A stretch of DNA of 32,000 bases, taken from positions 2,370,001 to 2,402,000 of the forward strand of contig NC_014972.1 in NCBI RefSeq assembly GCF_000186885.1, in the 5' to 3' direction. Each line of letters opens with the position of its first letter. The stretch's first letter is position 1. The notes under the pieces are model-generated. The model saw only the letters and a list, made by a program, of their open reading frames with translations. It ran no database searches and was not told the origin of the DNA. The translations under genes and the position numbers were made by a program. This DNA comes from Desulfobulbus propionicus DSM 2032 (GTDB lineage: Bacteria > Desulfobacterota > Desulfobulbia > Desulfobulbales > Desulfobulbaceae). Shown here piece after piece: positions 7,470 to 12,480 of this stretch.

Positions 7470-9572
7470 ATGAATAAAACAGAACTGCACGTTAAAGTTA
7501 ATAAAATTTATATCATTGTCGCCATATTGCTCCTCGCCTGCTATAGCAACGCAATAACTGTACCTTGGCATTTGGACGACCCGCCCAACATCACCGAAAA
7601 CTACCCTCTCCACATCACCGACCTCCAACCCGAAACCCTTTGGCAGACACTGTTCGCCAAGCCCTTTTCCCCAGGCACACTCGAACGCCCAGTAGCCTAC
7701 CTCAGCTTTGCCCTCAACTGGTATGTCGGCCAAGACAATCCTATTGGATATCATCTGGTCAACCTGCTCATTCATATCCTCACCGCTTTTTTCCTCTTCA
7801 AAACTACATTTCTGCTCCTGCAGTCTCCACGTCTCGAAAAATATTCTGAAGATAAGGCACTGTTCATAGCGCTTCTCAGTGCCACGCTCTGGGCCATCAA
7901 CCCCATCCAAACCCAGGCGGTTACCTATATTGTGCAGCGCATGGCCTCCATGGCTGCCATGTTTTTCATCTTCTCCACCTACAACTATATTCGTGCCCGA
8001 CAATCCGAAACAGCGGCACAAACAATCAAGCATTTTTCCTGGTGCATCCTTTTTTTTGCGCTGGCCTTAGGCTGTAAGGAAAACGCCATCACCCTCATTC
8101 CCAGTCTCTTGCTCATTGAACTGCTCTTTTTTTATCGAAGAGAGGACAAACAATCAAAAATCAGCCTGATTCTGCTCGTTGCTGCCAATAGTCTTCTCCT
8201 GCTCGGGGCGCTCTATTATTCTTTCCATCATCAGCTATTCGGCACCTATTCCAACTCTCTTACCACCAGACCCTTCACCCCATACGAACGGCTACTGACC
8301 CAGCCAAGCGTCTTGCTTTTCTATCTCTCGTTATTGCTGTACCCCTCGCCGGCTCGGCTTTCCATCGACCATAGTTTTCCGCTTTCCACCTCGCTTGTGC
8401 ATCCTTGGACAACACTCCCCGCCATAGTGACCATTCTTGGGCTGGTTCTCCTTGGAATTCTCTGCCGAAAAAAATGGCCCCTGCTCAGCCTGGCTCTCCT
8501 CTTCTTTTTCATTAACCACCTGGTGGAATCAACCTTCATTCCGCTAGAACTGGTTTTTGAACATCGCAATTACCTTCCTTCTTTTTTTCTTTTCCTGCCC
8601 ATTGCCGCCACACTCGGATGGGCACTTAATTACACGGCGATACACAGCAAGCTCTTATATGGCACACTGGTCGTTTTCATTCCTCTGCTTCTCTTTCTCT
8701 GCGGTTTAGGCACCTACAGCCGCAATGTGGCATGGAAAACGGAAGAGTCGTTGTGGACGGACAGCCTGAGCAAGGCCCCCACCAATGCACGTCCCTATGC
8801 CAAGTTGGCGGAAATCTATGGATGGCGAAAGGAAAAAAACGCGGAAAATTTTAAGATCGCCTTAGCGTTACTGCATCAATCCCTTGAACGGGAAAGCCCC
8901 CGCACCAGTTACAAGCCAGCTCTTGTTGGCAATATCGGCAAACTCTATGCTAAACATGGGCTCCTTGATCAAGCGGTTCTTTATTACAACCAATCGCTGC
9001 AACTCAATCCTGATTTCATCACTTCTCGATTCGATCTTGCCGAGGCACTTACCCTGCAAGGAAAATTCTCCGAGGCACTCACGCAAATCAATACGGTCAT
9101 AGCCAAAAACGATTTACAGAGCCGCTTCTTCAACCTGAAAGCCCTGCTCCTGTTGTGGCTGGACCGCCCCCAAGAGGCAGCGGGATGTTCCCAACAGGCC
9201 ATGCAACGAACCATGGTCAACAAGGAACGCTATTTTTACAATACAGGTGTTGCCTTGGGCCGAGCCGGCCATCTTACCCAAGGACAATGGTTTCTCAAAC
9301 AGGCCTTACACCAACACCCTAATGATCGCCGCATATTGTATAGCTTGATCGAAAACCGTTTGCTTGCCAAAGATGTCAATTCTGCTCGACAGTACGCGTT
9401 GTTCCTCTTAGAAAACCACAGTGTAACGTCTTATGAGAATGATTTGGCAAAACTGCCTACTGATTATTCCGCTGTTCCTGTTAATATCAGTGTGATTTCA
9501 CCCCTTATTGTTGAATGCGCACTCCAAGCCGCAACGAACTTGGAAAAGGTCCATAGCCAAAGGAATCAATGA
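7470..9572 (+). CDS. GT-C-fold membrane glycosyltransferase (PMT/TMTC-like, DUF1736-type) with C-terminal TPR repeats
   Basis: About 430 aa form a polytopic membrane domain. The first loop carries the acidic motif WHLDDPPNITENYPL, as in PMT/TMTC/ArnT-type GT-C enzymes. About 250 aa of TPR-like repeats follow (..AKLAEIYGW.., ..GKLYAKHGLLDQAVLYYNQSLQLNPDF.., ..AEALTLQGKFSEAL..). The start is uncertain: the track start at 7422 is a TTG inside the pilA terminator, so I prefer the ATG at 7470 (MNKTEL), although it lacks an obvious SD. Confidence 0.7.
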   Translation: MNKTELHVKVNKIYIIVAILLLACYSNAITVPWHLDDPPNITENYPLHITDLQPETLWQTLFAKPFSPGTLERPVAYLSFALNWYVGQDNPIGYHLVNLLIHILTAFFLFKTTFLLLQSPRLEKYSEDKALFIALLSATLWAINPIQTQAVTYIVQRMASMAAMFFIFSTYNYIRARQSETAAQTIKHFSWCILFFALALGCKENAITLIPSLLLIELLFFYRREDKQSKISLILLVAANSLLLLGALYYSFHHQLFGTYSNSLTTRPFTPYERLLTQPSVLLFYLSLLLYPSPARLSIDHSFPLSTSLVHPWTTLPAIVTILGLVLLGILCRKKWPLLSLALLFFFINHLVESTFIPLELVFEHRNYLPSFFLFLPIAATLGWALNYTAIHSKLLYGTLVVFIPLLLFLCGLGTYSRNVAWKTEESLWTDSLSKAPTNARPYAKLAEIYGWRKEKNAENFKIALALLHQSLERESPRTSYKPALVGNIGKLYAKHGLLDQAVLYYNQSLQLNPDFITSRFDLAEALTLQGKFSEALTQINTVIAKNDLQSRFFNLKALLLLWLDRPQEAAGCSQQAMQRTMVNKERYFYNTGVALGRAGHLTQGQWFLKQALHQHPNDRRILYSLIENRLLAKDVNSARQYALFLLENHSVTSYENDLAKLPTDYSAVPVNISVISPLIVECALQAATNLEKVHSQRNQ

Positions 9573-10744: not shown

Positions 10745-12480
10745 ACTCACAAGAACAGGGCAGACGGACCTTTCCAATCTCCGAAAAATGGATATATAGT
10801 GGGCTCATTTTGCTTCTTCTCGTTCTCCTTGTTACAACCATCCTGCTTGCCTCCGTCCCCCCTGTCGACCGGGACGCGTTAACTCACCATCTCTTTGTCC
10901 CTAAACTATGGCTCAAGCACGGTGGCATTTACGAGATTCCCGAGATTCATTTCTCCTACTACCCCATGAATCTCGATTTGCTTTATATGATCCCGCTCTA
11001 TTTCGGCAACGACATCATCCCTAAATACATTCATTACTGCTTTGCCCTGCTCACCGGGCTGCTGCTCTATCGCCACCTGAAGAAACGGCTGGGAATGGGG
11101 TACGGCCTGCTTGGCGCGCTCTTTTTTCTTTCGGTGCCGATCATCGTCAAGCTGTCGATCACCGTTTATGTCGACTTGGGCGTGGTCTTTTTCACCACCG
11201 CATCTCTGTTGTTGTTGTTTCACTGGGCGGAAAAGAATTTTCTGCCGCCTTACCTCATTCTTGCCGGATTGTGCTGCGGCCTGGCTGCTGGCACCAAATA
11301 CAACGGCCTGATCGGTGTTGTCGTGCTTACCCTGCTGGTGCCGATGCTCTATCAACAGAGCGCCACCCGGGAACGGCAGAGCAACGGCAAGGCGCTGCTG
11401 TGGGGAGTCGTTTTCGCCGTCGCCACCCTCGCGTCCTTCTCGCCGTGGCTGATCAGAAATCATGCCTGGACCGGTAACCCCATCTACCCCTTGCACAACT
11501 CGCTGTTCCAAAAATGGAGAGCTCCGGCGATCAACCAGCACACCCCCACACAGGTCGACCTCGCCGACACCCTGCGGCAGGCCACCCGCCAGGGTAGCAG
11601 TGCCTTTATTTCGCGGAAAATCCTCTACAACGAACCCTGGTGGCAAACCCTGCTTTTACCGCTCCGTTTTTTCTATGAGGGCCAGGACGACAACCCGCGA
11701 TTCTTCGACGGCAAGCTGACGCCGTTTCTCCTTCTTCTGCCGGCCTTGGCCTTTCTCTTCCGCTCAACGAATGCTCGACAGCGCCGGGAACAGAAATTTC
11801 TCCTCTCGTTCGCCCTGCTTTACTTCTTTTTCACCTTTTTCCAAGAAGCGATGCGCATCCGCTACATCGTGCCGATTGTGCCGCCCTTGGTGATTCTTTC
11901 CATGTATGGCTTACAGGAAACCTTGCAAAGAATATCCGCATGGATTGCCAACCCAAGGCTGCGAAAAATGGTTCGGTTGGCGGTAGCGGCCTGTATCCTC
12001 GGTTCTATATTAGGGTACAATGGTCAGTATCTAGCCAGCCAGTTCGCTGTGGTGAATCCCATGCCATACCTGCGAGGACAAATCAGCCGGGACGCCTATA
12101 TCACCACCTTCCGTCCGGAATACCCAGCAATACAGCATACCAATGCAGTCGTACCGCAGAACGCTAAAGTGCTGTGTATTTTCCTCGGCAACAGGGGCTA
12201 TTACATGGATTTCCAGCCGGTGTTCGAACAGCCGTTTGGGAATGGAATTTTCATGCAATTTCTTAGCAAAAAACAAAAAAATAAGAACATTGTGCAAATG
12301 TTGAACAAAGAAAATATCACTCATGTGCTCATCCGAGACGATTTGACATATTCATGGGTTCAGCAGTTGAAGGAGACAGAGCGACAGTTTTTTTCACCTC
12401 TTTTTAACAGTGCGACTCAACCTATTTTCAGCAAGTTCGGATACACTTTATTTGCAATAATTCAACCAAGTCATCGCTAA
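10741..12480 (+). CDS. Second GT-C-fold membrane glycosyltransferase (PMT_2 / ArnT / GT39-like)
   Basis: 579 aa with about 11-13 predicted TM helices. The first periplasmic loop reads PPVDRDALTHHLFVPKLW, an acidic D.D motif as in ArnT/PMT families. There is a soluble C-terminal domain of about 170 aa. An ATGA overlap joins it to the VKOR-DsbA gene (10741-10744). Confidence 0.6.
   Translation: MNSQEQGRRTFPISEKWIYSGLILLLLVLLVTTILLASVPPVDRDALTHHLFVPKLWLKHGGIYEIPEIHFSYYPMNLDLLYMIPLYFGNDIIPKYIHYCFALLTGLLLYRHLKKRLGMGYGLLGALFFLSVPIIVKLSITVYVDLGVVFFTTASLLLLFHWAEKNFLPPYLILAGLCCGLAAGTKYNGLIGVVVLTLLVPMLYQQSATRERQSNGKALLWGVVFAVATLASFSPWLIRNHAWTGNPIYPLHNSLFQKWRAPAINQHTPTQVDLADTLRQATRQGSSAFISRKILYNEPWWQTLLLPLRFFYEGQDDNPRFFDGKLTPFLLLLPALAFLFRSTNARQRREQKFLLSFALLYFFFTFFQEAMRIRYIVPIVPPLVILSMYGLQETLQRISAWIANPRLRKMVRLAVAACILGSILGYNGQYLASQFAVVNPMPYLRGQISRDAYITTFRPEYPAIQHTNAVVPQNAKVLCIFLGNRGYYMDFQPVFEQPFGNGIFMQFLSKKQKNKNIVQMLNKENITHVLIRDDLTYSWVQQLKETERQFFSPLFNSATQPIFSKFGYTLFAIIQPSHR

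Follow-up and report, generated by a model that had tools for sequence, protein, structure and literature searches.

We analysed a 32,000-nucleotide window of Desulfobulbus propionicus DSM 2032 (contig NC_014972.1, positions 2,370,001 to 2,402,000) which, from its gene content on both strands, we read as a type IV pilus locus. Directly downstream of pilA, which encodes the major pilin, are three genes, here called P1, P2 and P3, encoding a predicted GT-C enzyme with a TPR tail, a fusion of VKOR and DsbA-like domains, and a second GT-C protein. We propose, with a probability of about 0.6, that they form a pilA-linked accessory cassette in which P2 would oxidise the type IVa major pilin and P3, together with P1 where it is present, would O-glycosylate it. 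The argument starts from what the analysis shows, namely the domain identities, the GT-C fold, the conservation of catalytic residues and synteny. Decoration and disulfide-locking of the pilin are its most likely role, since the set recurs beside pilin genes in sulfate reducers and cable bacteria. The features central to this proposal are the following.

6979..7410, + strand: pilA, type IVa major prepilin (N_methyl motif E 2.7e-10)
7439..7466, + strand: terminator-like hairpin between pilA and P1 (folding energy against shuffles)
7470..9572, + strand: P1, 700 residues, predicted GT-C-fold membrane domain with TPR tail, TfpW-like (fold model, TPR matches)
9569..10744, + strand: P2, VKOR-DsbA fusion (Pfam, invariant Cys and cis-Pro)
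10741..12480, + strand: P3, PMT_2/PMT (GT39/ArnT-like) GT-C glycosyltransferase (Pfam, above curated cut-offs)

Domain identities of P1, P2 and P3

P2 is composed of a VKOR domain (residues 22-153), a linker transmembrane (TM) segment and a DsbA-like domain (residues 221-387). Pfam matches to VKOR (E 1.6e-25, 90.2 bits against a cut-off of 27.5), Thioredoxin_4 (E 6.6e-16, 59.4 bits) and DSBA (E 8.6e-12, 45.7 bits) were all above their cut-offs, and comparison of a P2 profile with the PDB returned human VKOR/VKORL, the Synechococcus VKOR-Trx fusion and DsbA/ScsC/BdbD. The cysteine pairs C53-x7-C61, C135-x2-C138 and C243-FQ-C246, and the cis-proline at T367-P368, were invariant in six orthologues of 38-66% identity. 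The original prediction of a complete VKOR and DsbA-like pair in P2 was thus borne out by all six catalytic cysteines and the cis-proline, as well as by the Pfam scores. Residues 157-174 form a basic loop (four K/R and no D/E) that is followed by a fifth hydrophobic segment, and this arrangement fits a periplasmic DsbA domain. Hydropathy was used for this loop only, being too crude for TM counts of P1 and P3. The exact P2 protein was seen on one short public contig only (Logan ERR7015327, 2.2 kb). There was no 100% entry for P2 or P3 in the homologue table, whereas P1 matched a D. propionicus record exactly, and this is probably due to an indexing or start-codon difference.

P3 matched both PMT_2 (37.7 bits, cut-off 26.1) and PMT (28.2 bits, cut-off 22.7). 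Residues P40, P41, R44, D45, H49 and H50 of its PPVDRDALTHH loop were invariant in 36 homologues, in agreement with the GT-C-like character and the loop that had been noted at the outset. Homologues of P3 are annotated as ArnT family, GT39 or phospholipid carrier-dependent glycosyltransferase. No significant match was found in PDB sequence searches with either P3 alone or a P3 profile.

The P1 reading frame is open from 7422 (TTG) or 7470 (ATG) to 9572, and its product matches, with 100% identity, an entry of D. propionicus DSM 2032 annotated 'TPR_1 repeat-containing protein'. A membrane domain (approximately residues 1-425) precedes a TPR domain (approximately residues 425-700), with Pfam TPR matches over approximately 475-660. 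P1 contains WHLDDPPNITEN, and the context of its first loop is W-H-L-D36-D37-P. Both D36 and D37 were invariant in 55 homologues (39-67% identity), as was the block E-x2-F-E-H-R-N-Y-x-P-S. An acidic first-loop motif and a TPR tail had been expected in this protein; the former is confirmed by the invariance of D36/D37, and the latter by TPR matches in Pfam and the PDB and by the TPR hairpins of the model described below.

Sequence libraries gave no assignment for the membrane domain. Pfam PMT, PMT_2 and DUF1736 were not matched by the whole protein at E <= 0.01 or by residues 1-445 at E <= 10, and the latter search returned only TMEM260-like (E 2.9) and one unrelated match. Membership of P1 in the PMT/PMT_2/DUF1736 (TMTC) families by sequence is therefore not supported. 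No NCBIfam match was obtained for the membrane domain, PDB sequence searches with whole P1 and with a membrane-domain profile gave TPR matches or nothing, and none of the 118 P1 homologues with precomputed domains, of 120 listed, carried a non-TPR Pfam domain. Some homologues bear the JGI name of the PilF/PilW TPR pilus-assembly lipoprotein, and this identity was also rejected for P1, which scored 26.8 bits to TIGR02521 (cut-off 154) in the TPR region only.

In the AlphaFold2 (AF2) model of full-length P1 (pLDDT 91.2), a stretch of 11-12 long helices ends before residue 425 and is followed by 8-9 TPR hairpins; Foldseek retrieved only TPR proteins with this model. When the model of residues 1-445 (pLDDT 81.5, pTM 0.86) was compared with the PDB, the top eight matches were all GT-C proteins (Pmt4, AglB, STT3A/B and ArnT; prob 0.89-1.00, E 1.5e-3 to 0.25, TMq 0.33-0.51), with EmbA-EmbB lower down. 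Alignment of the P1 and P3 profiles by hhalign covered the GT-C core (E 1.9e-4, prob 47%) and placed K203-E-N205 of P1 over K186-Y-N188 of P3. Based on these fold matches, the invariant D36/D37 and the alignment to P3, P1 is modelled as a GT-C enzyme with a TPR tail. The PMT/TMTC-like nature first proposed for P1 therefore holds at the level of fold, but not at that of the families PMT, PMT_2 and DUF1736. P1 may use a polyprenyl-phosphate-linked sugar donor, and a GT2 gene further downstream resembles donor synthases. By analogy, the TPR domain would lie on the periplasmic side.

At E <= 1e-3 a search with the P1 membrane domain (window 7470-8804) found 81,150 cluster representatives, and at E <= 1e-30 it found 16,384. 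The domain thus belongs to a large GT-C + TPR family for which neither Pfam nor NCBIfam provides a model. A tblastn search of 72,556 plasmids with the P1 membrane domain gave no match.

Gene order beside pilA and the proposed function

Genomes were scanned with the VKOR-DsbA fusion as anchor; the best 80 of 198 relatives were kept and their neighbouring open reading frames (ORFs) were scored by hidden Markov models. These loci came from Desulfobulbus, Desulfocapsaceae, Desulforhopalus, Desulfopila, Electrothrix, Electronema, Desulfosarcina, Desulfonema, Desulfosudis and others, Electrothrix and Electronema being cable bacteria. The number of informative loci was 69 for P3, 49 for pilA and P1, and 46 for both flanks. 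P3 adjoined the fusion gene in 65 of the 69 (62 directly downstream and three directly upstream), and this adjacency spanned two orders, the Desulfobulbales and Desulfobacterales, down to ~40% identity. Upstream of the fusion and on the same strand, pilA was found in 41/49 loci; P1 was present in 34/49 and duplicated in eight. The full set of pilA, P1, VKOR-DsbA and P3 was seen in 30 of the 46 loci with both flanks. Five neighbourhoods anchored on P1 homologues (40-63% identity) all showed the order pilA-P1-(VKOR-DsbA)-P3, beyond which lay varying glycosyltransferases, methyltransferases and flippases. Whether the trio stands beside pilA in other genomes, or only in lipopolysaccharide or exopolysaccharide loci, had been raised with the original prediction; all five P1-anchored loci and, among the 46, the 30 full sets and six more beside pilA answer strongly in favour of the former.

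Across 38 long related loci, the genes that follow P3 in the window were seldom found: the Wzx-type flippase in two, the GT2 gene in eight, and TagD and TagF in none (0/38 each). Since P1 is absent from six complete pilA-linked loci and conservation does not extend beyond P3, we take pilA, VKOR-DsbA and P3 as the conserved core; P1 is frequent but dispensable, and the donor-building genes are variable. Tandem P1-type genes (8/49 loci) were observed at L006:13411-15519 and in L025, L031, L036, L039, L064, L066, L070 and L082, where L numbers denote related loci, and in some genomes two pilA genes lie inside the cassette. Together these suggest paralogous enzyme-pilin pairs.

The prepilin starts at the ATG at 6979 and stops at 7408-7410, its leader ending at G14. 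Its two cysteines, at prepilin positions 47 and 119, are both conserved in a six-way alignment. Among the module-linked pilins, 47 of 54 contain two cysteines and no more, and alignment puts these at the same two columns. The first, mature position 33, is in the alpha-1 helix, and the second is inside a conserved (S/T)-x-R-C-P motif. Related pilins carry a variable Ser/Thr-rich loop after a conserved YF(A/S)IP, which in D. propionicus has the sequence IPNHTATPT. The two cysteines and the Thr-rich loop agree with the earlier description of the pilin as two-cysteine and Thr/Ser-rich. We take this loop to be comparable in position to the modified alpha-beta-loop residues of the Neisseria and Pa5196 pilins. 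At this place (window 7170-7200), N-x-S/T is frequent in the pilins of L009-L088, and H-T-x-T occurs in others, including that of D. propionicus; the difference may mark a candidate acceptor site, perhaps even one for N-linkage.

The ATG of P1 follows the pilA stop after 59 nt, within which a 12-bp stem with a GCAA loop (7439-7466) is followed by three U and then by the P1 start codon. The 71-nt stretch with this hairpin folds at -18.4 kcal/mol (z = -4.76), and none of 200 shuffles folded equally well. The hairpin was not among the calls of a simple terminator scan of the window, and the predicted stem and U-run are in keeping with the earlier statement that the trio begins right after a pilA terminator. 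A pilin-accessory cassette is defined by one or more accessory genes directly after pilA, behind a Rho-independent terminator (PMC11841053). The gene order and predicted hairpin of D. propionicus correspond to this definition, drawn from the P. aeruginosa pilin groups, and by analogy with other such cassettes the hairpin is probably an attenuator.

The three genes are chained by ATGA stop/start overlaps, with the letters caATGAacc at 9569-9572 and caATGAact at 10741-10744, exactly as first described. The further claim of co-translation and fixed stoichiometry was an over-reading. An NTGA overlap was found at 23/51 VKOR-DsbA/P3 junctions and 12/38 P1/VKOR-DsbA junctions, against ~25% expected by chance for the pattern, and in relatives the cassette genes are kept apart by gaps, by toxin-antitoxin cassettes or by a further copy of P1. 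Translational coupling as a conserved, required feature is rejected on these insertions and counts. Of the five P1-anchored loci, three had toxin-antitoxin insertions and one a second P1 copy. The inserts are PIN at L002:12238-12856, BrnT/CopG with Polbeta/HepT at L003:13644-15080 and Phd/PIN at L004:13495-14195, a pattern suggesting that this operon, conserved in other respects, contains a hotspot for repeated insertion.

P2 could also be a housekeeping replacement for DsbA and DsbB that lies in the pilA operon through an abundant substrate or operon history, the GT-C proteins being independent of it. VKOR homologues stand in for DsbB in many bacteria, fusions of VKOR with thioredoxin are known (3kp9 and 4nv2 were matched), the NCBI family name 'vitamin K epoxide reductase/DsbA family protein' is generic, and in eight of 46 loci pilA is missing from the vicinity. 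A housekeeping protein would not be expected to keep P3 as its neighbour in 65/69 loci, across two orders and to ~40% identity, or to overlap it by NTGA in 23 of 51 pairs. Moreover, in some metagenome-assembled genomes (MAGs) the unit is present two or three times at separate places (L014/L017, L027/L043, L054/L057/L061), most of these copies beside P1 or P3 and two with pilA in view. Such separately linked copies in single MAGs favour a dedicated unit, and we regard a housekeeping role as unlikely.

Several observations weigh against the proposal that the cassette modifies the major pilin. In six of 46 complete loci pilA, VKOR-DsbA and P3 occur without P1, and in eight of 46 VKOR-DsbA and P3 have no pilA within 8 kb upstream, so that either the pair can exist apart from pilA or pilA is elsewhere in the genome. 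No covariation was seen between the presence of P1 and the loop motif among linked pilins. P1 has no sequence-library assignment, and the E-values of its fold matches are marginal (1.5e-3 to 0.25). Finally, enzymes of the P3 type, such as ArnT, act on lipid A and glycans as well.

We infer the substrate, chemistry, topology and attenuation of the cassette as follows. The prepilin would lie in the inner membrane and its globular domain would face the periplasm, where the DsbA-like domain of P2 (CFQC) would oxidise the two conserved cysteines, one in the alpha-1 helix and the other in the G-R-C-P motif. Electrons would pass from this domain to the VKOR loop pair C53/C61, then to the membrane CxxC (C135/C138), and finally to the menaquinone pool. 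A single polypeptide would in this way do the job of both DsbA and DsbB, a solution workable in an anaerobe. P3, and P1 where present, would move sugars from polyprenyl-phosphate carriers onto Ser/Thr residues of the pilin, the likely target being the exposed loop after YF(A/S)IP, and the TPR domain of P1 could serve as a pilin- or glycan-binding arm. Donors would be supplied by the variable downstream genes, that is, the GT2 polyprenyl-phosphate sugar synthase, the GT4s and Wzx, with a CDP-glycerol pathway in D. propionicus. Attenuation of read-through by the hairpin would result in far less enzyme than pilin.

It is conceivable, though rather doubtful, that P2 works physically with the GT-C enzymes, as a counterpart of the oligosaccharyltransferase (OST) oxidoreductase subunits Ost3/Ost6 and TUSC3/MagT1. 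The DsbA domain of P2 would then hold the membrane-anchored pilin in a mixed disulfide, and glycosylation would take place before the helix-to-sheet disulfide closes and in coordination with that closure. The cassette would be a dedicated machine for glycosylation and oxidative folding of type IV pilins, conserved in the Desulfobulbales and Desulfobacterales, including cable bacteria. If true, such coupling would be a bacterial parallel of OST-oxidoreductase coupling in the eukaryotic endoplasmic reticulum.

Neighbouring genes in the window

The other features of the window are listed below.

1..1668, - strand: N-terminal part of a Calx-beta repeat protein, running off the window edge (Calx-beta E 8.9e-61, four repeats)
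2320-2985 and 2982-3425, - strand: two minor-pilin-like genes (N_methyl motif E 1.2e-8 and 2.9e-8)
3659-5101, - strand: PilR-like sigma-54 response regulator, divergent from pilA (translation)
5147-6691, - strand: PilS-like histidine kinase, divergent from pilA (translation)
12498..13832, + strand: Wzx-type flippase (Polysacc_synt, E 1.1e-20)
13883-14275, + strand: TagD-like glycerol-3-phosphate cytidylyltransferase (CTP_transf_like E 2.5e-25, TIGR01518 E 1.4e-35)
14296-15540, + strand: TagF-like CDP-glycerol glycerophosphotransferase (Glyphos_transf E 1.3e-61)
15611-16606, + strand: GT4 gene (Pfam)
16603-17868, - strand: GT4 gene (Pfam)
17852-18862, - strand: GT2 gene, polyprenyl-phosphate sugar synthase-like (Pfam; best matches AglJ, PpgS, PgfS and ArnC-type)

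The Calx-beta ORF has a start that resembles a signal peptide. In L003 and L007 the gene in its position encodes ~2,500-2,700 residues with Calx-beta, Cu-binding_MopE and T4P_PilY1 domains. Because these equivalents carry T4P_PilY1, the ORF of the window is likely to encode the N-terminal portion of a giant tip adhesin of the PilY1 type. The PilR and PilS equivalents of the same two loci contain Response_reg/Sigma54_activat/HTH_8 and HisKA/HATPase_c domains, respectively, and a PilR homologue was found in 29 of the 38 long related loci.

This adhesin, or the minor pilins beyond pilRS, might be the substrate of the cassette in place of the major pilin. The window, L003 and L007 all show synteny of the cassette with the Calx-beta/PilY1 gene and the minor pilins, and eukaryotic TMTC enzymes mannosylate beta-sandwich (cadherin) domains. 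The cassette is, however, co-oriented with and directly 3' of pilA, whereas the adhesin genes are divergent and 5-9 kb off. In L004, L005 and L006 the cassette is intact, but the 10 kb upstream of pilA hold unrelated genes and no Calx-beta/PilY1. Given also the two conserved cysteines of the pilin, we favour the pilin as substrate and consider the adhesin or minor pilins a most improbable choice.

Across 7000-17000 the GC content is 35-49%, compared to ~60% in the flanks, a pattern like that of variable surface-glycan islands. Polyprenyl-phosphate sugar synthases are the usual donor makers and partners of GT-C enzymes; for the GT2 of this island, the AglJ, PpgS, PgfS and ArnC-type matches were all under the equivalog cut-offs. 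TagD and TagF are teichoic-acid-type enzymes, here in a pilin-linked glycan island of a Gram-negative sulfate reducer, and the pair hints at a strain-specific glycerol-phosphate decoration.

The presence of Wzx, GT4, GT2 and TagD/TagF downstream, with a low GC content typical of polysaccharide loci, is also what would be seen if the GT-C enzymes acted on an envelope glycan or lipid (lipid A, O-antigen, exopolysaccharide or a glycerol-phosphate polymer) and the island merely abutted pilA. The ArnT-like annotation of P3 homologues points the same way, as do the 16,384 P1-type cluster representatives at E <= 1e-30, which are likely far more than pilin loci explain. Yet it is pilA-P1-P2-P3 that is conserved, while the polysaccharide-type genes downstream vary by genome; for a TPR-tailed GT-C encoded directly 3' of pilA, the nearest functional precedent is an enzyme that glycosylates pilin, and it is not evident why a lipid or glycan pathway should include a disulfide oxidase. 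We hold this explanation to be improbable.

Downstream of the island, the region 19308-31449 contains an Fe-alcohol dehydrogenase, an aldehyde:ferredoxin oxidoreductase (AOR; 20888-22636) and a pair of MoeA genes, of which one is a fusion with a PBP-like domain. A ThiF/MoeB-like gene and a TOBE-domain ABC transporter are also present. The region looks like a tungsten or molybdenum cofactor/AOR cluster with no relation to the pilin cassette.

Comparison with known systems

Most of the known cassettes for pilin glycosylation come from a small number of Gammaproteobacteria and Betaproteobacteria, in which they shape phage and immune evasion. By architecture and gene position, the closest analogue of P1 is TfpW, the group IV pilin accessory arabinosyltransferase of Pseudomonas aeruginosa Pa5196 and P. 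paraeruginosa PA7. TfpW has 646 residues and is encoded directly 3' of pilA. For this protein, which Phyre2 modelled on ArnT, 11 TM helices are predicted; its periplasmic loop 1 carries an essential DDX motif, and its C-terminal TPR is periplasmic. P1 resembles TfpW in the pilA-adjacent gene, the GT-C-type membrane domain, the number of long helices (11-12 in the model), the Asp-Asp of loop 1, the C-terminal TPR and its size (700 residues). P1 differs in that the Y-x6-P-F-x7-P motif of loop 4 is unmatched, with only Y285-x6-P292 present, followed by S-P-A-R-L-S-I-D-H. No DprE1/DprE2-type D-arabinofuranose genes were found among the annotated ORFs of the window, and with no such donor genes at the D. 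propionicus locus the sugar would differ from that of TfpW. Unlike the D. propionicus cassette, TfpW cassettes are without a VKOR-DsbA and a second GT-C, and their host is a Gammaproteobacterium and not an anaerobic member of the Desulfobacterota.

The eukaryotic TMTC1-4 proteins also join a GT-C membrane domain to a luminal TPR tail, and some P1 homologues carry the JGI name 'protein O-mannosyl-transferase'. TMTC membership of P1 is not supported, since its membrane domain matches neither DUF1736 nor any other Pfam family. Gene position, the GT-C + TPR architecture and the DD loop motif all agree with TfpW, which is therefore a better analogue than PMT/TMTC. With actinobacterial Pmt and Ppm1 (PMT/GT39) and with ArnT (GT83), P3 and the GT2 of the island share the logic of a donor synthase and a GT-C enzyme; unlike P3, those systems have no association with pilA or VKOR-DsbA. 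The TfpO/PglL O-oligosaccharyltransferases are pilA-adjacent in some species and glycosylate pilins in the periplasm from lipid-linked donors, using Wzx-flipped units. A transferase of this type was rejected here: no Wzy_C/O-antigen-ligase domain was found in P1, P2, P3 or their neighbours, and the fold class differs.

For P2, the Synechococcus VKOR-thioredoxin fusion (PDB 3KP9, 4NV2) was matched by the P2 profile with E 3e-9 to 8e-8. Both proteins have the VKOR loop cysteine pair and CxxC, an extra TM segment and a periplasmic thioredoxin-fold CxxC domain; P2 is distinguished by its DsbA-like partner domain, the unusual CFQC and a gene that lies inside a putative pilin-glycosyltransferase cassette. 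The nearest precedent for VKOR-dependent pilin oxidation is MdbA/VKOR of actinobacterial sortase pili, a VKOR-driven thiol oxidase that, according to literature cited in PMC6744442 and PMC5478893, is needed for pilin disulfides and pilus assembly in Actinomyces oris and Corynebacterium. Unlike P2, MdbA and VKOR serve Gram-positive sortase pili, are separate proteins encoded outside the pilin operon, and have no glycosyltransferase link.

Part of the cluster was drawn beside pilA in a 2023 paper on cable bacteria, the only one found to touch on it, which mentions 'TPR proteins' and 'sugar-modifying enzymes' there and assigns no function; the words VKOR and disulfide are absent from its text, and it names PilA as the protein of highest abundance in Ca. 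Electronema aureum (PMC10580974). Literature searches joining VKOR with pilin and glycosyltransferase, or VKOR with DsbA in deltaproteobacteria, returned nothing relevant. Within these searches, the novelty originally claimed for the combination survives as regards the joining of VKOR, pilin and glycosyltransferase, but the cluster itself had been drawn in part.

Compared with these systems, the locus would be a cassette for pilin glycosylation in the style of TfpW, to which a disulfide machine of its own and a second GT-C have been added. This would extend the TfpW-type design to anaerobic Desulfobacterota with two unreported members, a VKOR-DsbA oxidase and a GT39-like GT-C, and it offers a testable hypothesis for how disulfide-bonded pilins are made in sulfide-producing anaerobes. 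It also suggests a role for the proteins drawn beside cable-bacterial pilA, and for one subfamily of a GT-C + TPR family that comprises tens of thousands of sequence clusters.

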